A stretch of DNA of 24,848 nt from an uncultured Dehalococcoidaceae bacterium (GCA_964645025.1 CAZXYV010000002.1:1-24848), one strand, 5' to 3'. Shown: positions 4,462-19,137, counted from the stretch's first letter. Numbers and translations are program-made. Notes: generated by a model from the letters alone, not told the origin.

Positions 4462-5001
4462 ATGGCACGACTAAAGAGGACAAAAGAAAAGATTATTAAA
4501 AAAGCCGAGGAACTGGGGACAGAATACGAGGCTAAATACAAGGGCTGTGGTCAGTGCACTTTTTTGGCAATAGCTGATGCTTTGAGGTGGGGAGGCTTGG
4601 AAATTATCCCGAAGGATATGGAAGAAAGACTTTTTTCAGGGATATGCGTTCTGACCGGTGGTGTCAGTATGACCGGAGATGGTACCTGCGGTGCCGTCGC
4701 CAGCAGTGTTTTGTTGATTGGTATTGCCTTGGGCATTTCACGTGAGGGTCAGGACAACAGCGTTTTACGCAGGGGTTGCGCCACCGTCCGGGATACGCTT
4801 CTGGCCAAATATTATAAGGAATATGGTTCCATTCTCTGCAAAGACGTCCAGCGTAAATATTTCGGGAAGGCCTGGGACCTGACAAGTGATGAGATGAGTC
4901 AGGAGTTTCTGGGAGTGACACAGGGGTGCACTATAATGCAAACGGCAAAGTGGGCCACCGAGATTATTCTGGATGAACTGGAAAAGGCAAAACCAGGGTA
5001 A
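4462..5001 (+). CDS. C_GCAxxG_C_C family putative redox-active protein
   Basis: Cys pattern GCGQC ... TCGAVAS ... LCKDV ... GC. Start set at ATG 4462 after AGGGGG (track start 4444). Confidence 0.8.
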   Translation: MARLKRTKEKIIKKAEELGTEYEAKYKGCGQCTFLAIADALRWGGLEIIPKDMEERLFSGICVLTGGVSMTGDGTCGAVASSVLLIGIALGISREGQDNSVLRRGCATVRDTLLAKYYKEYGSILCKDVQRKYFGKAWDLTSDEMSQEFLGVTQGCTIMQTAKWATEIILDELEKAKPG

Positions 5002-5053
5002 ATAGCTTAGAGCCTCCTTGCCGTTAGTCTGGTCATAGTGCAAGCAAATCAGT

Positions 5054-5078
5054 CATCCCCATGTTTGTACAGTGGTAA
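5054..5078. repeat. Dispersed junction motif, copy A (att-like)
   Basis: CATCCCCATGTTTGTACAGTGGTAA, 20/25 identical to copy B at 14840-14864. Minus strand reads ...ITTVQTWG*. Confidence 0.7.
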
Positions 5079-5092
5079 TTCGGGATGTGATG

Positions 5093-6637
5093 CTATTTTT
5101 GGTCTTCATCGGTGACACGGACGAACTGGTAAAGCTGCTCGGGCGTTGAATAGTAGCTTTCGTCTTGCAGCAAACTAAGGTTTTCGCTGAAGTACGTATT
5201 GAGAATAACTCTAAAGGAATTGAGCGGCGTAATGGACTCATATAGCATATGATAATCGCTGTCAGGCAGGAAATATGTATTAAGTATATTCATCCTCTCG
5301 TTCAGTTGCACCTCGGTCATTTCATCGAGCGTGTCTCCGACCTCTATGGTAGCACTCGACCCGTGGTCTGATTGCATGACGATAATGGGCGCGGTCCGGG
5401 ATTTCAATAGTATTTCATCAATCGTCTCTCTAAGCTTCTTGTTGATAAAGATTAATTGCTCCACGTATCCCTTCTGATAGTACTGTGCCTCATTTGCGGC
5501 GTAAAATTCCACCCCAATAGCTGGGTCTCCCTTACTGTCAAACACGAAAGGAGTGTGCACCCCTCGCGAATGGACGAAGACAAATTTTGGTCCGGTTATC
5601 TCAGTTATATTACTCAGTGTATCAAACACATACAGCGAGTTCCTTCTGATATCGGCGCCCCATATAACCCTGAAAGGTTCCAGTGCCGTGGTTTTGAGCA
5701 GAGCAACCGCAAAATTTGTCATCCCCAACCCGAACGCTCCATGGCCCGGTAGATACACTTCATCATATTTATCAATGCCCTCGCTAAAAATACCATCGGA
5801 TATATAAATGCAATAGTAGCCATTCGCCTTTAAGAATTGCATCAGCCTATTGTTTGAAATAAGCTTCCTCAGAATCGAATAATCGCCTGCTGCCATGTCA
5901 TTGGCTGTTATCAGGTTGTCAAGATATTCCATATTCAAGGATGATGAGATGGACAGGGCGGTATGAGCATAATTAGACCGGCTTTTATCAGCAACGTAGA
6001 ACCCTTTGTCAGCCAGATAACCGAGAAATTCGCTGTTATCGTAGCCAAAGATATCCTTCAGGGTGCTTTGTCTCGCGTAGGAATCCACTATTATATAGTA
6101 GATATCCGGCGATTGAACGCTTGCTCTTGAAGCCGGTTTTTCGATACCGTTACCGGGGGCATCGGTAGCGGTAGCAATGCCGGCATTAGCAGACATGCTA
6201 AGCCCCTGGATGGCAATATTGATGATGGAGATTCCAATCAGAGTGAAGGCTACAACATTCAAGGTCCTGTGAAGCTGGGAGAAGCCAGTGTGTGCTCTGA
6301 TAATCAAAACGGAACCGGAGATGAAGACAGCCAGCCACAGAAACCCCAGGAAGATAGTGCCTTTAACCGGTCCCAGTACCGGAGCAACGTTAGAGGAAAC
6401 ACGCCCGTAAGAAAAAAATAGCACCAGTAGCAGGGACGTTACCAGTCCACTCTTGCCATAATCCCTGGTTATCACCTTCAAACATAGAAATACTACTGAT
6501 GTACCCAGAGTCACGGCGACTATCGGTAGCAGTATATCGATGACCGGTACTTCGTCGATATTATGGGCAAAGAGAAAAAGTATCGGAAATAAGCCGAACA
6601 AGAAGGGGTGGATAATTCGTGGAACTGCTATTTTCAT
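5093..6637 (-). CDS. Membrane-anchored alkaline-phosphatase/sulfatase-superfamily protein (LtaS/EptA-like architecture; NoeB-like by context)
   Basis: About 4-5 N-terminal TM segments, then PDIYYIIVDSYAR, SNYAHTALS, FVHSRGVHTPF and QSDHG metal/nucleophile motifs. ATGA overlap with the upstream gene's stop at 6634-6637. Confidence 0.75.
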   Translation of the reverse strand: MKIAVPRIIHPFLFGLFPILFLFAHNIDEVPVIDILLPIVAVTLGTSVVFLCLKVITRDYGKSGLVTSLLLVLFFSYGRVSSNVAPVLGPVKGTIFLGFLWLAVFISGSVLIIRAHTGFSQLHRTLNVVAFTLIGISIINIAIQGLSMSANAGIATATDAPGNGIEKPASRASVQSPDIYYIIVDSYARQSTLKDIFGYDNSEFLGYLADKGFYVADKSRSNYAHTALSISSSLNMEYLDNLITANDMAAGDYSILRKLISNNRLMQFLKANGYYCIYISDGIFSEGIDKYDEVYLPGHGAFGLGMTNFAVALLKTTALEPFRVIWGADIRRNSLYVFDTLSNITEITGPKFVFVHSRGVHTPFVFDSKGDPAIGVEFYAANEAQYYQKGYVEQLIFINKKLRETIDEILLKSRTAPIIVMQSDHGSSATIEVGDTLDEMTEVQLNERMNILNTYFLPDSDYHMLYESITPLNSFRVILNTYFSENLSLLQDESYYSTPEQLYQFVRVTDEDQK

Positions 6638-8004
6638 GGTCTCTTCGCCTGCATAAGATACAGGGTTCTCTGTGAGTTTCTGACATTTACAGATTCACGT
6701 ATCAAAAATAGCTTCTCGAATTCGCTCTGAAAAGCTTCCTTGGTATAGCCGGTGAATATATCCTCTCTTGTTGTCAGAAGCCTTTGTACCTGAGAATCGG
6801 TCTTGGGAATGAACTCGACTATAAGGGAGTGGCAGATTGCATGGAAAAACTCGGCGAGCTCGCTTAGCGAGACATTGTTGGAGATGACCATATGGTGAAC
6901 CAGGGCTAGGGCAATTACTGTATTGGTCGGACCGCGCTCCATCAAAGACATCCTCTCCTTATTCTGCCAGCCGATGCTCGGGCTGGGATTGGTTAAGTCA
7001 AGTACAAGGGGAAGTATGTTTGTTTCGTGGTTGCGGGCACATTCGAGGTAGTTTTTTTCGACCGCCGCCGGGTCAATATCAAAGGATATGGTTTTTGTGC
7101 CCCCGTTAGCCGCCAGACGACTGAACATCCCTACGTTGGCTCCGAGATCCCATACGCTCTCCGGGCAAATCGACTCCAGGAATCCGGCAACAATCTGCTT
7201 TTTATGCTCAAGCGCATCCGCAGAATAGTTCGTATCCTCGTAGTAATCTGCCCACTCCGTACCCGCCGGACGCCACTTGAGTTGTTTGATAGCGGACTTC
7301 AGGTTGCCCACAAGACCGAGCAGTGACACTCGTTTCATTCTATAGCTGCCCACAGCCGTGCCCTTATCGGCAAAGTGTTTCTGGCTTTTAGCATGAAGGT
7401 GAATATGAGAAAGCGAAGAAAATTTTAGCCAGCTCGCTAATGGCAGTAGCGAGCTGGCTAAATCCAGGGGGACGCCATCCATGTAGACCCTCAACAATTG
7501 GTTCAATCGTACATCTTTTTGCGCCATCAAGGTCAAGGGTGCCAGGAAATGCTGACAGAACTGCTTGTAGGCAACCCATGGATACCCTTCCCGGTAGTTT
7601 TCAAAGGAAAGGGTATCCATGAGTACCGGCCTGCCTTCACGAAACTGTATATTATAGGCACTGCAATCCTTCAACGTCATTCCGAATTCCAGTGCTATCC
7701 TTTCAATCTCAAGCGTGGTTAGGGCGGCGGCTTTTAGCTGACTGAAACACCATTCGTAGGGATACGATATAAACCCGATGCGCTCTGGCTTCAATACTCT
7801 ATGGGCGTCCTTTGATTGCTCACAGTCAATATCAACCTCGGTGTGAGGAATCAGCAACCTGGCGCCGGTCAGTTTATCATAGAGGCCTGAGTTCATTAAG
7901 CGGTCATAATGTTCCTGATAGACAGGGTTTACCCGGCGATATATCTCATTATCATGTACGAACAGAAAGCCACTTGGATCACGGAATGACCCAAAAACGC
8001 TCAA
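6634..8004 (-). CDS. Class I SAM-dependent methyltransferase with an N-terminal kinase-like domain (NoeA-like)
   Basis: C-terminal VWDLGANVG (motif I), SFDID and ALALVHH. N-terminal SFRDPSG and LKDCSAYNI...LMD. TTG start overlaps the TGA of the upstream peptide gene (TTGA, 8001-8004). Confidence 0.8.
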   Translation of the reverse strand: MSVFGSFRDPSGFLFVHDNEIYRRVNPVYQEHYDRLMNSGLYDKLTGARLLIPHTEVDIDCEQSKDAHRVLKPERIGFISYPYEWCFSQLKAAALTTLEIERIALEFGMTLKDCSAYNIQFREGRPVLMDTLSFENYREGYPWVAYKQFCQHFLAPLTLMAQKDVRLNQLLRVYMDGVPLDLASSLLPLASWLKFSSLSHIHLHAKSQKHFADKGTAVGSYRMKRVSLLGLVGNLKSAIKQLKWRPAGTEWADYYEDTNYSADALEHKKQIVAGFLESICPESVWDLGANVGMFSRLAANGGTKTISFDIDPAAVEKNYLECARNHETNILPLVLDLTNPSPSIGWQNKERMSLMERGPTNTVIALALVHHMVISNNVSLSELAEFFHAICHSLIVEFIPKTDSQVQRLLTTREDIFTGYTKEAFQSEFEKLFLIRESVNVRNSQRTLYLMQAKRP

Positions 8005-8240
8005 CTTACCGGTTTCTCCCTATTGGTCTTGGAGAATATACCACTCAAGAACCTCCTAACTTTCCTCCAATACACCTCAAGCATGAAAAGGGCTCCGACA
8101 ATACTACCGATAACAATCTGTAGAATAATGCTACCTGTCCCGGGGTCGATATAGTTGTGGATACCTAGCGCCGATGGCGTTAAGTGTCCGCTGCAGAGAT
8201 ACGCTGAAATATGCAATCCTGTTTCCAATAGTTCAACCAT
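8001..8240 (-). CDS. Small membrane protein with YIDPGTGS motif
   Basis: GGAGGT (minus strand, 8246-8251) precedes the ATG. YIDPGTGS is followed by a hydrophobic helix and a basic WRKVRR tail. Stop overlaps the next gene's start. Confidence 0.75.
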   Translation of the reverse strand: MVELLETGLHISAYLCSGHLTPSALGIHNYIDPGTGSIILQIVIGSIVGALFMLEVYWRKVRRFLSGIFSKTNREKPVS

Positions 8241-8478
8241 AATTTACCTCCCCAAGTGTCAGCTGGGCTTCTTGCTGTACTGACCTGCCCCCAGTAGTTG
8301 TACTCCTGGTTAGCCGCTCTCCCACGACATAGCCTACAATCTCACTGGTAAACAGATCCTTATCTGGGATTTCCCGTATCAACTCGTAGTGAGCTGACCC
8401 TCGTCCCTCTTTAGTCTTAATACCAAATGATATACCCATCGCATCCGATTGTCTCCACGCCACTGGGATACCTAGCAT
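8233..8478 (-). CDS. Possible hypothetical protein (81 aa) at the head of the minus-strand operon
   Basis: ATG at 8478 preceded by AAAGGT, downstream of a near-consensus promoter; its stop overlaps the YIDPGTGS gene start by 8 nt. No recognisable motif, so it may instead be an untranslated leader. Confidence 0.3.
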   Translation of the reverse strand: MLGIPVAWRQSDAMGISFGIKTKEGRGSAHYELIREIPDKDLFTSEIVGYVVGERLTRSTTTGGRSVQQEAQLTLGEVNYG

Positions 8479-8528
8479 CTCTACACCTTTGCCTGTATCC
8501 CCCGACACTAAACAGGCTAATTGGCGTA

Positions 8529-8557
8529 ATCATAGCACTTTTTATGACATTTGTCAA
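8529..8557 (-). promoter_or_regulatory. Sigma70-type promoter for the minus-strand operon
   Basis: Minus strand TTGACA-17 nt-TATGAT with TGn before the -10. A TGACA-TT-TGTCA palindrome (8545-8556) overlaps the -35. Confidence 0.7.
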
Positions 8558-8817
8558 AATTTCTGCTCAGTATCCCCCAGACAACTCATAGCCTCCCGGG
8601 AGTTCAGCTCCGGTACCCCGGAACACCTGTTTAGCAAACCAGAAGTAGCTCTCCACCCGAAAAAAGACGATACTTTCCCTATCTTCTTCATCTGGCTGCC
8701 TTTGTGTGCCCTCAGTGTGCTAGGAAAATGCTCAAACCTGCGGATTAAGGGCAAAGCATGCCTGTTGCTTCCGCTATTGTAGTGTTTCATGTAAATAGAA
8801 GAGTAGCATATTGATAA

Positions 8818-8846
8818 TTGACAAAAAATGTCTACTATGCTAACAT
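8818..8846 (+). promoter_or_regulatory. Sigma70-type promoter for ABC cassette 1 (divergent from 8529-8557)
   Basis: TTGACA (8818-8823), 17-nt spacer, TAACAT (8841-8846) preceded by TGC. Confidence 0.6.
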
Positions 8847-9102
8847 TCCACAGCGTCTAAAAACTAATATGCCGATTTATTCAAAATATAATTCAACATA
8901 CAAGATTAATTTATTAGAATTATGTAAAAATACCATTGGACGCCATGATTTAAGCGATAAGCCCGGGAACATATTATTTTATAATCTATATCTTACGTCA
9001 TAAAAGACAGAGGGAGGTGAAAAAAGGCCAGAGACACGATAGTTCTACGGCTCATCCGAATGAGAAGTGAATAAACATTATTATTACGGAGGTGGTATAA
9101 AA

Positions 9103-10740
9103 GTGAAAAAGGTAACCATTCTGATAATTACTTTACTGGTAGCTGTGCTAATCTTCGGTGCTTGCTCTGAAGCAACCCCTACTACGTCCGCGCCAACCAC
9201 AAGCGCACCTACTACATCCGCACCAAAAACGACTGCCCCAACTACGGCTGCACCAACTACGGCTGCTACTACCACAAAAGCGCCGACCACAACTGCAACA
9301 AGCGCCATAACAAAGGGCGGTACTTTAAAAATAGCTGACCCGGTTTTTCCGAGTAACTTAGGTTGGACGGCAGATCCCGCCTGGGGGCGTGGTGGTCACG
9401 CCCCGGCCCTTTTCTTCGATACTCTCCTCAAGCAAGATAGCAACGGGAATACCGGGCCTAACCTCTGTTCGGCATTCACGGTCGCCCCGGACAAGAGCAC
9501 CATCACGCTTACCCTGAGAAAGAGCGTCAAGTTCCATGACGGGTCGGACTGGAACGCCGCCACGGCCAAGTGGAACCTGGATATATTAATCAGTGCCAAA
9601 TTGGGTGATTACAAGGAATTCAAATCGGTAGACATCGTGGATGACAACACGATAAAAATAAATATAGGTACCTACACCAATACCCTGCTCACCACCCTGT
9701 CCGGCACTTACGTCATCTCTAAAGCCGCTTATGATAAAAACGGTGATGCCTGGATGAAGTTGAACCCGGTCGGGACGGGGCCTTTCATCTGTACCAAGTT
9801 CGAGTCCGAAGTCTCCGCCAAAGGCGTCAAGAATCCCAACTACTGGCAGCAGGGCAAGCCCTACCTGGATGCCGTGGAGTTTTTTAAAATTAATGACACC
9901 ATGACCAGGTCAGCCTCTCTCCAGGCAGGGGAAGTGGACATCATCGGCGGTGACCTCTCCAAGGTGGAGTATGACCTCCAGCAAAAAGGATTCGATGTTG
10001 TCAAGGGCTATATCTCGGTCTATACCCTGATACCCGATAGCAAAAATACTAACTCGCCCTTCGCCAATCCCAAAGTACGCGAGGCAATGGACTATGCCAT
10101 TGACCGCGATAATCTCGTCAAGGCCCTCGGCTATGGTTTCTGGGCTACTACCTACCAGTTTGCTCTTCCCGGAACATCCGCCTTCAACCCGGCCCTGACG
10201 CGGCCTTATGACCTGAATAAAGCGAAACAGTTGCTGGCCGAGGCCGGTTATCCCAACGGTCTCAAAGCTTCGTTTACCGTAAATTCGGCGGTAAGCAACC
10301 GGGACGCCGTGACTGCCATACAATCATCCCTGAGCAAGGCAGGGATCACGCTCGACATGCAAATAGTAGACGGTACGACGGCCAACAACTACTACGCGAA
10401 TGGCTGGACCAATGGTTTACAGGGTGCCGCGTCATCGATAGGGGCCAACGTGAACGCTTCTCTTACCGCGTTGACCAAGGACGGCCCGACGTGGTACGTC
10501 AGCCTGGACAAGACTGAAGACTTTTATAACCTGTACCGTGCCTCGCTTACCTCGCCGCAATACGATGTTGCGCTGGTGCAAAAAGCGATAAAGTACTGGT
10601 TTGATAACGCGACCTTTAACTGCATTTATGCCGTTTCACGCGGTGTGGTCCTGCCGCCGTGGGTGCACGATACCGGTTTCTACACCCGCCACCGTTTCTG
10701 GTACTGGGAACCGGCCGATACCTGGATGAGCAAGCATTGA
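9103..10740 (+). CDS. ABC transporter substrate-binding lipoprotein, family 5 (dipeptide/oligopeptide/nickel type)
   Basis: Lipobox LIFGAC, TLRKSVKFHDGSDWNA, PVGTGPF, YWQQGKPYLD, KVREAMDYAIDR, KAKQLLAEAGYPNG. Start set at GTG 9103 after GGAGGT (9088-9093) instead of 9067. Confidence 0.9.
   Translation: MKKVTILIITLLVAVLIFGACSEATPTTSAPTTSAPTTSAPKTTAPTTAAPTTAATTTKAPTTTATSAITKGGTLKIADPVFPSNLGWTADPAWGRGGHAPALFFDTLLKQDSNGNTGPNLCSAFTVAPDKSTITLTLRKSVKFHDGSDWNAATAKWNLDILISAKLGDYKEFKSVDIVDDNTIKINIGTYTNTLLTTLSGTYVISKAAYDKNGDAWMKLNPVGTGPFICTKFESEVSAKGVKNPNYWQQGKPYLDAVEFFKINDTMTRSASLQAGEVDIIGGDLSKVEYDLQQKGFDVVKGYISVYTLIPDSKNTNSPFANPKVREAMDYAIDRDNLVKALGYGFWATTYQFALPGTSAFNPALTRPYDLNKAKQLLAEAGYPNGLKASFTVNSAVSNRDAVTAIQSSLSKAGITLDMQIVDGTTANNYYANGWTNGLQGAASSIGANVNASLTALTKDGPTWYVSLDKTEDFYNLYRASLTSPQYDVALVQKAIKYWFDNATFNCIYAVSRGVVLPPWVHDTGFYTRHRFWYWEPADTWMSKH
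9181..9300 (+). repeat. Degenerate 15-nt tandem repeat (8 units) encoding a Thr/Ala/Pro linker
   Basis: Units translate TTSAP TTSAP TTSAP KTTAP TTAAP TTAAT TTKAP TTTAT, shortly after the lipoprotein Cys. Confidence 0.85.
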
Positions 10741-10822
10741 TGCTCTGTAATCTTTAGACGAAGGAAAATAAATACTTTATAGCGCCGGCTGAAGAGTAAA
10801 AGAAAAGGAAAACTAGAATAAA

Positions 10823-10873
10823 GGACAGGGAAAAGTATATAAGAATAAGAGGAAAACATACTTTTCCCTGTCC
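10823..10873 (+). other. Intercistronic stem-loop (16-bp perfect inverted repeat) between SBP1 and permease
   Basis: GGACAGGGAAAAGTAT (10823-10838) / ATACTTTTCCCTGTCC (10858-10873), 19-nt loop. Could be an attenuating terminator or an mRNA-stabilising hairpin. Confidence 0.75.
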
Positions 10874-10990
10874 CATCCTCTTTTCAAGAAAGAAGATAAA
10901 ACGAGACTCTATCTCTTTTTATTTTTTGCTATGTTAGGACGTAGCCGGTATCGGTTTGAGTTATAATTCAGTTTTTAAAAGAGATTAATT

Positions 10991-11947
10991 ATGACTACGT
11001 ATATCATTCGTAGGCTGATACAGGGTTTCTTCATCCTCATTCTGGTCACCCTCATCGTGTTTCTGGCTATGAGGCTGCTTCCGGGCGACCCCATTTACAT
11101 GATATTGGGTGAGGCTGAGCTATCCAACATGACGAGGGAAGCAATTGACGAAATAAGGCATGAGTATGGACTGGATAGACCCTTGCTGGTGCAGTATGTT
11201 GACTGGATAGGGGGTATTTTTCATGGTGATTTTGGTATTTCAATCGTTTATGATTACTCACCGCTGAGAGTAATAGGCAAGGCAGTGCCCATTACCCTCA
11301 ATTTAAGTTTACCGGCTTTTTTTATCAGCTTCATGATTGGAATTCCGACGGGCGTGGTCTGCGCCATCAGGCGGGGCACATGGATTGATACGGTAGTGAC
11401 TATTCTGGCTAACATAGGTATTACCATTCCTATTTTTTGGCTGGGTACCATGCTCATCTATATGTTCGCCCTGAAACTCCACTGGTTACCGGTCCAGGGA
11501 TATACACCCCCTCTCGTTGATCTGGTGAAGAACATCCGCCAGATTATCATGCCCGTTTTTTGCCTGGCTATTTTCACCATATCCGCCACGTCCCGGCAGA
11601 CCCGGTCAAGTATGCTGGAGGTCATGAGGCAGGACTATATCCGTACGGCATGGTCCAAAGGCTTGAAGGAGCGCAAGGTGGTAATGAAACATGCGCTGAA
11701 AAATGGCCTCATCCCGGTGGTCACGTTATTGGGCATGGGTTTCAGTCACATCATTGGCGGCTCGGTCCTGGTAGAGACCGTATTTAATATCCGGGGTGTG
11801 GGCCTAACGCTGGTCAGCGCCGTCTTCGCGCGTGATTACCCGATTGTTCAGGGTTACGTTTTCTTTATTGCCATCACGGTATTAATCGTGAATTTGATTG
11901 TTGATATTTCTTACGGGTGGCTTGACCCAAGGATACGGTACGGTTAA
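10991..11947 (+). CDS. ABC transporter permease, DppB/OppB type
   Basis: YIIRRL...RLLPGDP...GLDRPLLVQY, EAA-loop region DYIRTAWSKGL, VETVF, RDYPIVQG. Confidence 0.92.
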   Translation: MTTYIIRRLIQGFFILILVTLIVFLAMRLLPGDPIYMILGEAELSNMTREAIDEIRHEYGLDRPLLVQYVDWIGGIFHGDFGISIVYDYSPLRVIGKAVPITLNLSLPAFFISFMIGIPTGVVCAIRRGTWIDTVVTILANIGITIPIFWLGTMLIYMFALKLHWLPVQGYTPPLVDLVKNIRQIIMPVFCLAIFTISATSRQTRSSMLEVMRQDYIRTAWSKGLKERKVVMKHALKNGLIPVVTLLGMGFSHIIGGSVLVETVFNIRGVGLTLVSAVFARDYPIVQGYVFFIAITVLIVNLIVDISYGWLDPRIRYG

Positions 11948-11956
11948 GGAGCGGAC

Positions 11957-12856
11957 ATGGCCGCAAATAATGATACATTACGCACAGATTCCGGATTACT
12001 GGCACCGCACACCAGCGAGTTAAAGCGTTTCCAAAGGGTATTGTTTAGCCGGGGCCTGGTGGTATTTGGTGTGATAATCATCCTGCTCGTCATTGTAGTC
12101 GCTGTTTTTGCTCCTCTGCTGGCGCCTTATGACCCGTATGAACAGTACTGGGACCAAACCTTGCTTAATCCTTCATCACATCACCTGCTCGGCACCGATT
12201 CTCTCGGCAGGGACGTCTTAAGCCGTTTAATTTTCGGTTCGCGAAACTCCCTGATGGTCGGTATCGTCGCTCTTGGCATTGCCGCGATATTCGGTATGTC
12301 TATGGGGCTCATTGCCGGATATTTCGGCCGCTGGATAAACACCATTATTATGAGAATTATTGATGCCATGATGAGTTTTCCCATGATTTTACTCGCCCTG
12401 GTAATTGCAGCTTTACTCGGTGGCGGCATGAGGAATGTGATGATCGCTTTAGGCATCGCCATGTTACCCGGGTACGCCAGGCTGATGTGCGGCCAGGTGC
12501 TCTCCGTCAAGGAGAATGACTATGTACTGGCAGAACACGCCGCCGGCGCCGGCGACCTGCGGATTATGCTGCGCCATATACTGCCTAATTGTTTTCCTCC
12601 GTTAATAGTTATGGTGACAATGCAAATCGGGGCAGCGATACTGGCCGAAGCCGGCTTGAGCTTTCTTGGAATCGGCATCGAACCTCCCGCAGCCGCTTGG
12701 GGTCTCATGGTTGAAGATGGACGTATGTATCTGATGACCAATCCTATCCTTTCTTTTGCCCCCGGTCTGGCTATCATGCTTGTTGTATTTGGTTTCAATA
12801 TGGTTGGCGATGGCCTGCGTGACGCTCTTGACCCAAGGCTAAGGGGCACAATTTAA
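11957..12856 (+). CDS. ABC transporter permease, DppC/OppC type
   Basis: HLLGTDSLGRDVLSRLIFG, DYVLAEHAAGA, EAGLSFLGIG, GDGLRDALDPR. Confidence 0.92.
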   Translation: MAANNDTLRTDSGLLAPHTSELKRFQRVLFSRGLVVFGVIIILLVIVVAVFAPLLAPYDPYEQYWDQTLLNPSSHHLLGTDSLGRDVLSRLIFGSRNSLMVGIVALGIAAIFGMSMGLIAGYFGRWINTIIMRIIDAMMSFPMILLALVIAALLGGGMRNVMIALGIAMLPGYARLMCGQVLSVKENDYVLAEHAAGAGDLRIMLRHILPNCFPPLIVMVTMQIGAAILAEAGLSFLGIGIEPPAAAWGLMVEDGRMYLMTNPILSFAPGLAIMLVVFGFNMVGDGLRDALDPRLRGTI

Positions 12857-14772: not shown

Positions 14773-14997
14773 TCAACATTTCACTAAGGGTGTTACATAA
14801 TCCAACCTGAGTGGTTCATTTTTATTGCCAACTAACATACATCCCGATGTTCGTTCAATGGTAGGTAAATCTAATTCTAATGGATTGACACCTCTAATCT
14901 CTAGCTTATCACGGCTGGCATAGATTCCTATATCCAAGGCGTCAAAGGCCAGCCTTTTTATCTCTGGGGTGCGGTTCTGGAGTATGGTTACTAACAA
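14773..14997 (-). pseudogene. Probable remnant of the 3' end of a large serine recombinase gene
   Basis: KRLAFDALDIGIYASRDKLEIRGVNPLEL-LPTIERTSGC resembles, from memory, C-terminal tails of Dehalococcoidia recombinase-family proteins. Two in-frame stops lie directly upstream and there is no catalytic domain. Not verified by search. Confidence 0.5.
14840..14864. repeat. Dispersed junction motif, copy B (att-like)
   Basis: CATCCCGATGTTCGTTCAATGGTAG. Shares ACATCCCGATGTTC exactly with copy C and 20/25 with copy A. Confidence 0.7.
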
Positions 14998-15177: not shown

Positions 15178-15312
15178 ACTGTGCGAGCTATGAAAGATTA
15201 CCCCCATCAAATCCAAAAACACATACCTGCTTCTCTGGAGAAAGGCGGTGAGATAAAGCGTAAATTGAGACATCACATATATTATCCGCAAATTCAAAAA
15301 GGAGGGAACAAA

Positions 15313-16926
15313 ATGAGGAAGATTCTATTCATCGTCTTTGCGGTTGTTTTGGTGAGCGCGTTGATTTTTGGCAGCTGCGCCAAATCAACCACACCAACCG
15401 CCACCACCCCGGCAGCAACCACCCCGGCGGCAACCACCCCGAAACCGACCACACCGGCACCTACCACGGTAACACCGAAATCCGGCGGCACCCTTAAATA
15501 CGGCGAATCTCTCTGGTACGGGGCCACCCTCGGCTGGCCCGGAGACCCGGGCTGGCTCGTCACGTCGCCCGTGGTCAATGTCTTCGCCGACACTATCCTT
15601 TCGGTGGATACCAAGGATATCATTCATCCGAACCTGGCCACCGCCTGGAACGTATCCTCGGACCTCAAGACCATCACGCTTACTTTAAGACCGGGCATTA
15701 AGTTCCATGACGGGTCGGACTGGAACGCCACGGTATGCAAGTGGAACCTCGACCTGCTGGTCACCCCTAAATATGGCGATTATGCCTATGTAACCTCGGT
15801 TGATATCGTCGACCCCTCCACTGTCAGGCTCAACCTGAATCAGTACAGCAACAGTCTCCTTACCACCATCGGCAGCACCTTTGTCGTTTCCCAGCAGGCT
15901 TATATCGACCATGGCGCCAACAAGGACGCTGAGACCTGGATGCGGGCGAATATCGTCGGCACCGGGCCTTTCAAGCAAACTGCGGTGACTCCCAACGTAT
16001 CTATCACAGGCATCAGGTTTGACGGTTACTGGGGCGGTAAGCCGTACCTGGACAGTATTATCATGACCCAGATTGGCGACCAGATGACCAGGGCGCAGGC
16101 CCTTCAGGCAGGCGAGATTGACATTGAAGGCGGCAACCCCACGAAAATCGAAGCTGATCTTTTAGCCGCGAATAAGAACTTTAAAATCCAGGCGGACTAT
16201 ATCGCTATCTCCTCACTTGTTCCTGACAGCAAGAACACTGCCTCGCCGTTCTCTAACCTCAAAGTTCGCCAGGCTGTCAGCTATGCTTTCGACCGTGACT
16301 CTATCGTCAATAGCCTGGGTTACGGCTACTGGGTGACTACCAGCCAGTACGCCGTGCCGGGCACGGTCTCTTATAACAACGCTATTCCTGTCATCAAACA
16401 GGACCTGACCAAGGCCAAGCAGCTGCTGACCGAGGCCGGCTATCCCAACGGCTTCACCACCTCGATTCTCGGCTCCTCCGTGACGAGCTTCAAGGACATG
16501 TTGGTGGCGGAGCAGGGCATGATGGCGAAAATCGGCATCACCGTTAATATCAACATCATCGACCATCCTTCTTATAACAACGCCATCAATAAAGGCTGGG
16601 ACGGTTTAGCCGCGGCCGGCAAGCTCATCGACGCTAACATGGGCTGGGCTCTCGGCACCAATTTTGGGCAGAAAGTTGTTTCAAACGCCAGCTTGGCCAA
16701 GACCGACGATTTTCAGGCCTTGTTAAACGCCGCTCTGGCATCAAAGGACTATGACCCGGCCTTGATAGGCAAGGTCGTGAAGTACATGGACGATAACCAG
16801 ACGGTCATCGTTCTTAACGCCACCATGCGCGGCCAGGTGATGGCGAACTACGTGATGGACCCCGGTTTTTACACCTACGACCGCGCCACTTACTGGAACC
16901 CGGCCAAAACCTGGTTGAACAAGTAA
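15313..16926 (+). CDS. ABC transporter substrate-binding lipoprotein, family 5 (paralog of 9103-10740)
   Basis: Lipobox LIFGSC, LRPGIKFHDGSDWNA, VGTGPF, YWGGKPYLD, KVRQAVSYAFDR, KAKQLLTEAGYPNG. Start set at ATG 15313 after GGAGGG; the track start 15181 lies at about the predicted transcription start. Confidence 0.9.
   Translation: MRKILFIVFAVVLVSALIFGSCAKSTTPTATTPAATTPAATTPKPTTPAPTTVTPKSGGTLKYGESLWYGATLGWPGDPGWLVTSPVVNVFADTILSVDTKDIIHPNLATAWNVSSDLKTITLTLRPGIKFHDGSDWNATVCKWNLDLLVTPKYGDYAYVTSVDIVDPSTVRLNLNQYSNSLLTTIGSTFVVSQQAYIDHGANKDAETWMRANIVGTGPFKQTAVTPNVSITGIRFDGYWGGKPYLDSIIMTQIGDQMTRAQALQAGEIDIEGGNPTKIEADLLAANKNFKIQADYIAISSLVPDSKNTASPFSNLKVRQAVSYAFDRDSIVNSLGYGYWVTTSQYAVPGTVSYNNAIPVIKQDLTKAKQLLTEAGYPNGFTTSILGSSVTSFKDMLVAEQGMMAKIGITVNINIIDHPSYNNAINKGWDGLAAAGKLIDANMGWALGTNFGQKVVSNASLAKTDDFQALLNAALASKDYDPALIGKVVKYMDDNQTVIVLNATMRGQVMANYVMDPGFYTYDRATYWNPAKTWLNK
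15388..15477 (+). repeat. Degenerate 15-nt tandem repeat (6 units) encoding a Thr/Pro linker
   Basis: TTPTA TTPAA TTPAA TTPKP TTPAP TTVTP after the lipoprotein Cys. Confidence 0.85.
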
Positions 16927-17007
16927 CCCGGCTGATAAACTGGTCTTCGGCGGGAACGTAACCGCCAGCATTGAAGAAGACGTAAATAGAAAATAGCTAA
17001 ACTAAAA

Positions 17008-17056
17008 GACGGGAAGAGATTTATAGACCTGACATGTTTATAAATCTTTTCCCGTC
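17008..17056 (+). other. Intercistronic stem-loop between SBP2 and permease
   Basis: GACGGGAAGAGATTTATA (17008-17025) / TATAAATCTTTTCCCGTC (17039-17056): 18 bp with one G-U pair, extendable by 3 bp into the loop. Confidence 0.75.
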
Positions 17057-17084
17057 GTTATATAATGGTGGTTAGAGGTCTTTA

Positions 17085-18041
17085 GTGACAACGTACATCA
17101 TTCGTAGAATCATATTGGCCGTAATCGTCCTGTTCCTGGTGACGATGATAGTATTTTTTGCGATGCGCCTTCTGCCCGGCGACCCTATTTACATGATCAT
17201 GACTTCAGGTGAACTGTCCAATGTTACCGAAGCGCAAATTCAGGCTCTCAGGCACGAGTTCGGACTGGATGAACCCATCATCGTCCAATATTTCAACTGG
17301 GTAAGCGGCGTTTTCCGGCTTGACTTCGGCACTTCAATAATGCAGCGCCGCTCGCCATTAGCTATGATCGGCCAGGGTGTCCCCGTAACCCTTAATTTAA
17401 GCCTGGTGTCCTTTGTCATCAGCCTTATCATCGGCGTTCCCGCAGGCGCGATTTGTGCTATCCGCCGGGGCACCTTGATAGATACGGTGGTAACGATATT
17501 AGCGAACATCGGCATTACCGTGCCTATTTTCTGGCTGGGTACTATGCTTATTTATCTTTTTTCACTACAACTCCACTGGCTGCCGGTGCAGGGTTATACG
17601 TCACCTTTCACGGACTTAGTAAAGAACCTCCGGCAGATTACTATGCCGGTTTTCTGCCTGGCTATCTTTCCGATAGCCTCAATAACGCGGCAGACCCGGT
17701 CGAGCATGCTGGAGGTCATGCGGCAAGACTACATCCGTACGGCATGGTCCAAAGGCCTGCAAGAACGGCTGGTGGTGATGAGACACGCCTTGAAAAACGG
17801 CCTCATCCCGGTGGTCACGCTCTCCGGTATGGGCTTGAGCATCATCCTGGGCGGTTCAGTCCTGATAGAGACCGTTTTTAATATCCAGGGCGTGGGACAA
17901 ATGCTGGTGAACGCCGTCTTTGCCCACGACTATCCGGTGGTTCAGGGTTTCATCCTGTTCGTCGCCGTGGCCGTGTTATTCATCAATCTGCTGGTGGATG
18001 TTTCCTACGGTTGGCTCGACCCGAGGATACGGTACGGTTAA
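17085..18041 (+). CDS. ABC transporter permease, DppB/OppB type (paralog of 10991-11947)
   Basis: Same length (318 aa) and same motifs: RLLPGDP, DYIRTAWSKGL, WLDPRIRYG. Confidence 0.92.
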   Translation: MTTYIIRRIILAVIVLFLVTMIVFFAMRLLPGDPIYMIMTSGELSNVTEAQIQALRHEFGLDEPIIVQYFNWVSGVFRLDFGTSIMQRRSPLAMIGQGVPVTLNLSLVSFVISLIIGVPAGAICAIRRGTLIDTVVTILANIGITVPIFWLGTMLIYLFSLQLHWLPVQGYTSPFTDLVKNLRQITMPVFCLAIFPIASITRQTRSSMLEVMRQDYIRTAWSKGLQERLVVMRHALKNGLIPVVTLSGMGLSIILGGSVLIETVFNIQGVGQMLVNAVFAHDYPVVQGFILFVAVAVLFINLLVDVSYGWLDPRIRYG

Positions 18042-18053
18042 GGAGCGCTTCTG

Positions 18054-18950
18054 ATGACGCAATCGGGTATTGTGTATAGTGAATCCTTAATAGCCGCGCC
18101 TCATACCAACGAGTTCCGGCGTTTCCTGCGGGTATTGTTCGGCCGGGGGCTGGTAATATTCGGCGCCGTCATTATATTGCTGGCTATTTTAACAGCCATT
18201 TTCGCGCCCTACCTGGCGCCTTACGACCCCTACGAGCAGAACCTGGCCGAGTCGCTAGTCAAACCCTCGGCGCACCACCTGCTGGGGACCGATTCTCTCG
18301 GCCGCGATACGTTGAGCCGGCTTATCTTCGGCTCACGGAACTCGCTGCTGGTCGGTCTGGTGGCGCTGGGCATCGCTGCCTCTATCGGTATCATCATGGG
18401 CCTATTCGCCGGTTACCTGGGCGGTTGGGTATACAATGTAATTATGAGATTTATAGACTCCCTGATGTGTTTCCCGATGATATTGCTGGCGCTGGTCATC
18501 GCCGCACTGCTGGGCGGTGGAATTAAAAACGTGATGGTGGCGCTGGGGGTGGCCATGCTGCCAGGGTACGCCCGCCTGATGTGCGGGCAGGTGCTTTCCG
18601 TGAGGGAAAATGACTACGTGCTGGCCGCCAACTCCGAAGGCGCCAGTAACCTGCGCATCATGTTCAACCACATTCTGCCGAACTGTTTTCCGCCGCTTAT
18701 CGTACTGATGACCATGCAGATAGGCGCCGCGATTCTGGCCGAGGCTGGTCTCAGCTTCCTCGGCGTCGGTATCGAACCGCCGGCCGCCGCCTGGGGTCTC
18801 ATGGTCAACGACGGGCGTTATTATCTACTTTCCAATCCCCTACTCTCTTTTGCGCCCGGCATGGCCATCATGCTGGTTGTGTTTGCTTTCAATATGGTGG
18901 GGGACGGGCTACGGGACGCCCTGGACCCCAGACTAAGAGGAATGCTTTAA
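18054..18950 (+). CDS. ABC transporter permease, DppC/OppC type (paralog of 11957-12856)
   Basis: HLLGTDSLGRDTLSRLIFG, EAGLSFLGVG, GDGLRDALDPR. Confidence 0.92.
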   Translation: MTQSGIVYSESLIAAPHTNEFRRFLRVLFGRGLVIFGAVIILLAILTAIFAPYLAPYDPYEQNLAESLVKPSAHHLLGTDSLGRDTLSRLIFGSRNSLLVGLVALGIAASIGIIMGLFAGYLGGWVYNVIMRFIDSLMCFPMILLALVIAALLGGGIKNVMVALGVAMLPGYARLMCGQVLSVRENDYVLAANSEGASNLRIMFNHILPNCFPPLIVLMTMQIGAAILAEAGLSFLGVGIEPPAAAWGLMVNDGRYYLLSNPLLSFAPGMAIMLVVFAFNMVGDGLRDALDPRLRGML

Positions 18951-19107
18951 TTAAAAACGAATAATTCCGCCAAGCACCGCAACTGACAATTCACGCATCT
19001 TGTCACCTTTACTCAAAATGTTAAATAACCGAAGCTCCATCTGCCTGGTATCGTCCGTCACTATTAGCTGGTGCTAAGATACTGAAACATACGCATGGAA
19101 AGGCAGA

Positions 19108-19130
19108 CATCCCGATGTTCATAGTGGCGA
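19108..19130. repeat. Dispersed junction motif, copy C (att-like, 2-nt deletion relative to A/B)
   Basis: CATCCCGATGTTCATAGTGGCGA. One minus-strand frame reads *TSGCLPFHAY. Confidence 0.6.
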
Positions 19131-19137
19131 TAGGTGA

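Follow-up and report, generated by a model that had tools for sequence, protein, structure and literature searches.

A Dehalococcoidaceae member of the NoeA/NoeB (Lani_1193–1195) gene cluster and the anatomy of its small membrane peptide

The Lani_1194 family of kinase-like proteins was defined by Krysinska et al. 2022 (PMC9758233), with the nodulation protein NoeA as a homologue. Its members carry an Arg in place of the catalytic Lys, and 94% of them have a methyltransferase domain (PMC9758233). Among 816 neighbourhoods, a small hypothetical protein, Lani_1193, was found in 65%, and Lani_1195/NoeB, which has an alkaline-phosphatase fold and gave YejM (by FFAS) and EptA (by HHpred) as best matches, in 38%; the supplement lists mixed SignalP calls for Lani_1193 in Legionella (PMC9758233). 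The S. meliloti nodL-noeA-noeB genes go back to Ardourel et al. 1995, as cited in PMC9758233. Our literature search returned no later paper mentioning or characterising the Lani_1194 family. Here we describe an operon of this kind, encoding a small peptide, a kinase-like/methyltransferase protein and a membrane transferase, on a 24,848-nucleotide (nt) stretch of DNA from an uncultured Dehalococcoidaceae bacterium (GCA_964645025.1 CAZXYV010000002.1:1-24848; hereafter the window). The operon almost certainly belongs to the NoeA/NoeB (Lani_1193-1195) gene cluster, a very widespread cluster founded on the rhizobial nodulation genes noeA and noeB, of which it is one more, somewhat atypical, member; the module itself is no new discovery. 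New in this analysis are the anatomy of the peptide and its pairing with sulfatase-family membrane enzymes in loci without the kinase-like/methyltransferase gene. The initial annotation of this DNA had proposed a candidate uncharacterised system; the triad had already been described by bioinformatics in 2022 (PMC9758233).

The three genes, with lengths in amino acids (aa) from the open reading frame (ORF) listing, are the following:

8001..8240, minus strand: peptide gene, 79 aa, ATG start
6634..8004, minus strand: kinase-like/methyltransferase gene (MT), 456 aa, TTG start
5093..6637, minus strand: membrane transferase gene (SUL), 514 aa, ATG start

Each gene runs into the next. The MT start lies over the peptide stop in TTGA (8004-8001), the SUL start lies over the MT stop in ATGA (6637-6634), and a Shine-Dalgarno sequence, GGGGAGG (8253-8247), is found 6 nt 5' of the peptide ATG. 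The layout given in the initial annotation, one near-consensus promoter and three genes with 4-nt overlaps (8001-8004 and 6634-6637), is borne out by the ORF listing and a promoter scan. Like Lani_1193-1195 and nodL-noeA-noeB, the window has a middle enzyme of the same family and two-domain architecture, a small protein encoded upstream and an alkaline-phosphatase-fold protein downstream, and the co-occurrence figures obtained here are of the same order as those published for Lani_1193-1195. The window differs from nodL-noeA-noeB in that its peptide lacks the signal peptide which rhizobial and most other peptides of the family have, a nod box and an acetyltransferase are absent, and SUL appears to be at most remotely related to NoeB.

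The peptide has no family match in Pfam, NCBIfam or PADLOC, and our literature search found no paper mentioning its motif. In the window, YIDPGTGS occupies residues 30-37 (nt 8153-8130) and is followed by one predicted transmembrane (TM) helix at about residues 38-60 and by a basic C-terminal tail. A peptide search of a word-indexed database returned two relatives only. Metagenome contigs were scanned with a degenerate DNA pattern for YLDPGTGS...Q, and 120 of the 120 loci returned were true members of the peptide family. In the family alignment (A5), the Y, D, G, G, S and Q of Y-[LI]-D-x-G-x-G-S...Q are invariant. Ala precedes the invariant Tyr in 110 of the 120 members and occupies position -3 in 83, and 92 of 102 complete precursors are signal-peptide-like, with a basic n-region and a hydrophobic h-region. 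Judged by sequence, the majority form carries a classical Sec/signal peptidase I signal with a predicted AxA cleavage, after which the mature chain, about 51 aa long, would begin with Y-L-D-P-G-T-G-S. It has one TM helix, with an invariant Gln, and a median of five Lys and Arg residues directly follows the helix; by the positive-inside rule, the octapeptide would be extracytoplasmic and the tail cytoplasmic. The window peptide is atypical: its N-terminal extension is 29 aa long and not hydrophobic, and P0242, a peptide of the same length and 86% identity, shares it.

The combination of motif, TM helix and basic tail resembles C-terminal sorting signals (LPXTG, PEP-CTERM), a resemblance that may be generic to type I membrane peptides. 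No recurrent neighbour cluster was sortase- or exosortase-like among 80 genome loci, in which no dedicated search for such enzymes was run. A secreted-effector reading of the peptide was rejected because of its anatomy and gene context.

Co-occurrence was assessed from both ends, with the 80 genome loci anchored on MT and the metagenome loci anchored on the peptide motif as a reciprocal test. In the MT-anchored set we looked upstream for a small ORF with [YFW][ILVMF][DN]xGxG[STGA]xxxQ, and such an ORF lay directly upstream of MT in 70 of 75 testable loci. Reciprocally, of the 88 metagenome loci with enough downstream sequence, 68 had an MT homologue immediately 3' of the peptide gene. The gap between the two genes in other genomes is typically -4 to +25 nt. 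SUL homologues followed MT in 13 of 28 metagenome loci with enough room, and SUL-cluster proteins were present in 53 of the 80 genome loci. The same order of genes, peptide-MT(-SUL), is found again in many phyla, which is more than chance. Co-occurrence of the three families, which the initial annotation had named as a check on its proposal, is thus strong, and SUL follows in about half of the loci.

The peptide is also found without an adjacent MT gene. In L098, L140 and L167 (all Pfam-confirmed) and in L163, the next gene encodes a membrane protein of the sulfatase family (PF00884). A SUL homologue comes directly after the peptide in L131, where MT is reduced to a 32-bit fragment match, and in L090 and L122 a sulfatase-like membrane gene lies beside the peptide on the opposite strand. 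Other peptide genes without MT have different neighbours. Three marine AT-rich contigs (L086, L121 and L157) encode a multi-TM protein of about 230 aa, a protein of 780-860 aa and two smaller ones, among which we tentatively recognise, by eye, CotH-like, VTC-domain and DUF4956 proteins. In L201 and L130 the neighbours include a fusion of cytidylyltransferase and phosphoenolpyruvate (PEP) mutase, as in phosphonate head-group synthesis, and YidC.

Anaerolineales have the peptide and MT genes without an adjacent SUL, and their peptide has no signal peptide and an acidic tail end. The pair sits there in a conserved synteny of housekeeping genes, rimM-dprA-manC-topA-peptide-MT-unknown membrane protein-greA, which also includes a dGTPase gene. 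It was seen in loci L034, L042, L045, L048-L053, L055, L065, L067, L069 and L077, from Anaerolineales and related Chloroflexota metagenome-assembled genomes (MAGs). The gene after MT encodes a conserved membrane protein of about 330 aa without a Pfam family, which may replace the transferase in this lineage. Contexts elsewhere include glycosyltransferases, sugar epimerase and aminotransferase genes, Wzt-like ABC ATPases and PEP mutase/cytidylyltransferase, and these glycan, sugar-nucleotide and phosphonate settings agree with a role in the cell envelope.

The peptide gene is present in the classical rhizobial operon as well. Between nodL and noeA of pSymA (L081:3754-3969) lies an ORF for a 71-aa peptide, MPIIMSVVGFLILSIVPAHA followed by YLDPGTGS..., which is annotated as 'hypothetical protein' and whose 3' end runs 23 nt into the annotated noeA start. 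The nodL-noeA-noeB operon therefore has an overlooked fourth member, and the nodulation literature that we found does not name a gene at this place.

MT is the middle enzyme of the module. Neither MT nor SUL had a significant sequence match in the PDB, with a single sequence or with a profile, so both enzymes were compared by fold. The domains of MT are as follows:

7225..8004, minus strand: protein-kinase-like domain, approximately residues 1-260, from the AlphaFold2 (AF2) model and Foldseek
6634..7224, minus strand: class I S-adenosylmethionine (SAM) methyltransferase domain, approximately residues 261-456 plus the stop codon, from motifs and the model

Foldseek searches of the PDB with the N-terminal half gave CK2, RIO kinase and PknG as top matches (E about 4e-4, over roughly 190-320 columns). 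R23, N118 and D130 are invariant in a 31-sequence alignment that includes NoeA (A3) and in a second alignment (A1); D113 is likewise invariant in A1, while its conservation in A3 is at least 90%. The characteristic motifs of this half are LKDxSAYN (LKDxSAxN) and IDTLSF. R23 would stand in for the catalytic Lys, with residues of the D166/N171/D184 type also present, a mapping onto protein kinase A made from motif spacing, without superposition. The C-terminal half has a Rossmann-type order of strands and helices in the model. Its motif I residues D286/G288/N290/G292 are invariant in A1, as are D309, D311, D336 and TNPSP (338-342). Pfam gave a sub-threshold Methyltransf_23 match only, and a weak PMT-like alignment covers motif I. 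From the model, we predict with high confidence that MT is a cytoplasmic fusion of a kinase-like domain and a class I SAM methyltransferase. The kinase/methyltransferase fusion read from the DNA in the initial annotation is borne out by the AF2 model, Foldseek and the invariant catalytic-type residues.

By tblastn against plasmids, MT residues 3-452 (99% of its length) are 35% identical to NoeA (E 4e-67). MT matches 57 Sinorhizobium records including pSymA, the annotated ones bearing the label 'noeA: nodulation protein NoeA'. On this alignment, MT is a full-length NoeA homologue. The family is large, with at least 8000 clusters at 90% identity when all scored candidates at E<=0.001 are counted, and 1875 clusters at 50% identity at E<=1e-30. 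The best genome match is a Dehalococcoidia MAG, and identities of 54-66% are found to Dehalococcoidia, Planctomycetota, Actinomycetota, several Candidate Phyla Radiation (CPR) lineages and Dependentiae, a range that extends to Elusimicrobia, Bacteroidota and Proteobacteria genomes. Rates within the operon are unequal, at 55-66% identity across phyla for MT, 30-40% for the transferase and about 35-50% for the peptide outside its motif. The MT coding region also holds a hairpin (7424-7462) with 19-nt arms, 95% complementarity and a 1-nt loop, which falls in the low-confidence part of the kinase-like domain and was also picked up on the coding strand by a scan for terminators; it may act as an attenuator inside the gene or be there by chance.

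SUL is the membrane enzyme of the module. Its parts are the following:

6176..6637, minus strand: N-terminal membrane domain with five predicted helices, residues 10-154, from the AF2 model
5093..6115, minus strand: extracytoplasmic alkaline-phosphatase-fold domain, approximately residues 175-514 plus the stop codon, from Foldseek

The AF2 model of SUL (predicted local distance difference test score, pLDDT, 86) has five TM helices followed by the alkaline-phosphatase-fold domain. Foldseek placed EptC, EptA, ICR-Mc and MCR-1 on top (E 6e-10 to 1e-7; best entries 6a82, 4tn0, 5fgn, 6bne and 9nww), with sulfatases below, and SUL aligns with full-length EptA (5fgn) and MCR-1 (9nww). Among the conserved positions, D185 (100%) follows strand 179-184 at a metal-binding acidic position, T/S226 (100%) starts helix 226-235 and is the candidate nucleophile, D424 (100%) and H425 (82%) form an Asp-His pair after strand 418-422, and H356 and H361 are conserved at 96% and 90%. 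The equivalence of these residues to those of EptA was read from their place in the fold. With high confidence, on the basis of the model, SUL is a membrane enzyme of the alkaline-phosphatase superfamily that is EptA-like and has a predicted catalytic domain outside the cytoplasm.

SUL thus resembles EptA, EptC and MCR-1 in its five-TM domain, its extracytoplasmic alkaline-phosphatase fold and its Asp, Thr/Ser and Asp-His positions, and differs from them in lacking a sequence-level match to the solved members. The metal ligand in EptA is Glu, and SUL has Asp at that position. The Pfam Sulfatase family (PF00884) scored 23.0 bits on SUL, under the gathering score of 25, and about half of the listed SUL homologues carry it. 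The label 'LtaS-like' in the initial annotation holds at the level of the superfamily; the fold is nearer to EptC, EptA and MCR-1, no LtaS entry was among the top 50 fold matches, and 'EptA-like' is probably the better description. A SUL homologue of Singulisphaera bears the RefSeq label 'LTA synthase family protein', and SUL is 33% identical to the transferase beside the MT homologue on a Singulisphaera plasmid. The comparison with S. meliloti NoeB gave an hhalign probability of 87% (E 3.8e-6) over 86 columns only, in the HxxPH...GDHG region. The homology to noeA-noeB that the initial annotation had assigned to this operon therefore stands in full for MT, and for SUL as a remote link at most.

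Beyond the gene order, the folds, the conserved catalytic residues and the co-occurrence that we observe, we infer the physical interactions, the substrates and the direction of flow in the following scheme. Translational coupling would give the three products in a fixed ratio, and they would work together, organised at the membrane, as a unit for envelope modification. Sec would export the peptide in most lineages, and cleavage after AxA would place Y-[LI]-D-P-G-[TS]-G-S at the outer face of the membrane. The peptide would act as an adaptor or assembly subunit, its cytoplasmic tail holding the soluble kinase/methyltransferase at the inner face and its outer motif and TM helix touching the membrane phosphotransferase. 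The kinase/methyltransferase would phosphorylate and methylate a membrane-bound precursor, either a lipid head-group or a lipid-linked glycan. The EptA-like enzyme would then transfer a phospho-headgroup from a lipid donor, via a Thr/Ser-phosphoenzyme, to an envelope acceptor outside.

A precedent for such an adaptor is BcsF of the E. coli cellulose system, a single-pass peptide of about 60 aa whose cytosolic tail recruits the cytosolic protein BcsE; the bcsEFG genes also encode the phosphoethanolamine transferase BcsG (PMC11470070). Both systems thus combine a cytosolic protein, a single-pass peptide and an alkaline-phosphatase-fold transferase in one operon. The Bcs proteins have no homology to the window module, however, and BcsE is a cyclic di-GMP sensor, not an enzyme pair; BcsF lacks the signal peptide and the conserved outer motif of the peptide family. 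The peptide pairs with MT alone in some loci and with a SUL-like enzyme alone in others, as expected of an adaptor common to both. Among the roles of acceptor, carrier and assembly subunit that the initial annotation had offered for the peptide, the data favour the last. We give an even chance to the reading of the peptide as the membrane adaptor of an envelope phospho-headgroup modification system.

Several points weigh against this reading. An anchor role alone leaves unexplained why no part of the peptide is as conserved as the outer octapeptide, and the octapeptide is invariant even where no transferase adjoins. The N-terminal extension does not look like a signal peptide in the window or in other Chloroflexota, so the topology of this form is drawn from the positive-inside rule alone. 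With a pLDDT of 70, the MT model is only moderately good, and template-modelling scores are low for its matches to kinase folds. The window operon lies among transport and metabolic genes, without glycan genes, and the S. meliloti noeA/noeB data in the papers that we found are nodulation phenotypes, with Nod-factor modification as a hypothesis only. In the Bcs precedent itself, BcsF does not touch BcsG (PMC11470070).

A broader and bolder proposal is that the peptide is a new and very widespread signal-peptidase-processed, single-pass 'coupling' subunit, which physically links a cytoplasmic ATP/SAM enzyme to an extracytoplasmic alkaline-phosphatase-fold phosphotransferase, either as scaffold or transmitter of a two-sided envelope modification or as the membrane-anchored acceptor of a phospho-headgroup on its exposed Thr/Ser. 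We regard this proposal as unlikely, at perhaps one chance in a handful.

Somewhat less likely is that the peptide itself is simply the acceptor, the exposed Thr/Ser of Y-L-D-P-G-(T/S)-G-S being O-modified, once the signal peptide is cleaved, with a phospho-headgroup by the EptA-like enzyme; the kinase/methyltransferase would either provide or edit the donor or else act on the peptide's cytoplasmic tail. Proteins are known acceptors of such enzymes, as EptC modifies FlgG and PptA modifies pilin. The near-invariant G-[TS]-G-S would sit at the outer membrane surface where an EptA-type domain works, and the peptide gene adjoins sulfatase-family membrane enzymes even without MT. The signal-peptide form also tracks an adjacent transferase, since SUL adjoins 26 of 36 signal-peptide forms and 3 of 27 forms without one, a correlation that is confounded by phylogeny. 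Against modification of the peptide, its link to the cytoplasmic MT, at 77-93%, is tighter than that to the transferase, at about 40-65%, and in Anaerolineales, where no transferase adjoins, the motif is just as conserved.

MT could instead act as WbdD does. WbdD, the chain terminator of the E. coli O9a O-antigen, joins a kinase fold and a SAM methyltransferase in one protein, is cytoplasmic and membrane-associated, and acts on an envelope polymer. On the cytoplasmic side, a lipid-linked polysaccharide would then receive from MT a methyl-phosphate cap at its non-reducing end, the peptide would replace the membrane-binding C-terminus of WbdD, and the EptA-like enzyme would be a co-regulated but independent decorator. 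The shared domain content, also remarked in PMC9758233, and the location of some relatives beside Wzt-like ABC ATPases, GT2/GT4 glycosyltransferases and sugar-nucleotide enzymes are consistent with this function. The domain order is reversed, however, with methyltransferase-kinase-coiled coil in WbdD and kinase-methyltransferase without a coiled-coil segment in the MT model. The resemblance to WbdD drawn in the initial annotation accordingly extends to domain content and stops at domain order and the coiled coil. The legend to Fig. 6D of PMC9758233 likewise gives Lani_1194 and WbdD different domain arrangements; the statement 'clearly different families' in that paper concerns Lcin_0519, a kinase-methyltransferase protein, and WbdD. 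Furthermore, the top 50 fold matches do not include WbdD, only about 4 of the 80 loci have Wzt-like genes nearby, and the peptide-MT pair of Anaerolineales and of the window stands among housekeeping and transport genes with no glycan cluster. We consider a WbdD-like function quite unlikely.

The same housekeeping synteny in Anaerolineales fits a target outside the envelope. MT would act on a cytoplasmic macromolecule or metabolite, with the peptide as a sensor or regulator and the transferase as a functionally separate neighbour. MT is far more conserved than the transferase, and its homologues are labelled 'PrmA-like' in some sources. The partner of MT is persistently a membrane peptide, however, and is translationally coupled to it; the EptA-like partner recurs in about half of the loci and in many phyla, and the peptide associates independently with sulfatase-family membrane enzymes. 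A non-envelope target is, on balance, improbable.

A small ORF translationally coupled to a kinase-like/methyltransferase enzyme could also be the precursor of a ribosomally synthesized and post-translationally modified peptide, exported after modification, but we rejected this very remote reading on peptide anatomy and gene context, as cleavage site, octapeptide, TM helix and basic tail make a type I membrane protein and not a leader and core, and no protease, transporter or cyclase genes co-occur in the neighbourhoods of the 80 genome loci.

Two further features precede the peptide gene:

8529..8557, minus strand: candidate sigma-70-type promoter, TTGACA (8557-8552), 17-nt spacer and TG-extended TATGAT (8534-8529)
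8241..8528, minus strand: 5' leader of about 288 nt, non-coding, kept in one close relative (L083)

The candidate promoter (8557-8529) matches the consensus at 11 of 12 positions and is the top sigma-70-like site in 4900-9100, an interval with 17 such sites against 7.8 +/- 2.4 in shuffled sequences. In L083, the one close relative found, the -35 hexamer is unchanged and the -10 hexamer is TAATAT. The promoter lies about 290 nt 5' of the peptide ATG and so implies a long leader, which is about 90% identical in L083. A 91-aa ORF in the leader (8508-8233) was rejected as a gene, as a 1-nt indel at 8337 breaks its frame in L083 and codon-position bias is absent too (4:6:7); the leader is read as non-coding on these grounds. 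Its fold z-score is -2.3. No Rfam match was found, with the whole window searched at gathering thresholds and 8200-9080 by E-value, and a tRNA scan gave nothing relevant. The leader was found in L083 only, not in other module-bearing loci, and may act in cis as a regulatory RNA confined to its lineage.

The operon is a stand-alone unit in the opposite orientation to its flanks, a pair of URO-D-like and C_GCAxxG_C_C genes on one side and a duplicated oligopeptide ABC transporter region on the other. The latter comprises two diverged operons (9067-12856 and 15181-18950), each with SBP_bac_5 and two permeases, at 69-77% DNA identity and a constant offset of 6094 nt, with a gene for an S15 X-Pro dipeptidyl-peptidase between them. 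An intergenic repeat, CAnnCATCCCsATGTTyGTnCArTGGTA, is found at 5050-5077, at about 14836-14863 and at about 19104-19131. Its first copy stops exactly 15 nt before 5093, which bears out the placement of the block 15 nt from 'junction motif A' in the initial annotation, and the repeat is probably that motif. It contains a short palindrome, ACATC-CC-GATGT, and might serve as an operator site or simply be a small repeat element. A mobile element or island was rejected, as no flanking direct or inverted repeats that would mark its borders and hint at recent mobility were found and the dip in GC content of the region is only mild. A defence system was likewise rejected, PADLOC models giving no meaningful match to the window proteins. 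The window sequence is present in freshwater, wetland and marine sediment metagenomes, and a look for RNA runs returned none.

The module is among the more widespread bacterial gene clusters still without a biochemical function, ranging from CPR bacteria and Chloroflexota to Legionella and rhizobia, and its middle enzyme is unusually conserved. The rhizobial members are host-range determinants of nodulation. Working out the chemistry of the module would probably bring to light an envelope decoration of a new kind and account for noeA/noeB. Useful new leads from this analysis are the anatomy of the peptide and the fact that it pairs independently with enzymes of the sulfatase family, and the peptide offers handles in its predicted cleavage site, its exposed Thr/Ser motif and its cytoplasmic tail. 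If the peptide is a coupling subunit or an acceptor, this would give the 30-year-old host-range genes noeA/noeB both a biochemical function and the fourth member that their operon was missing.

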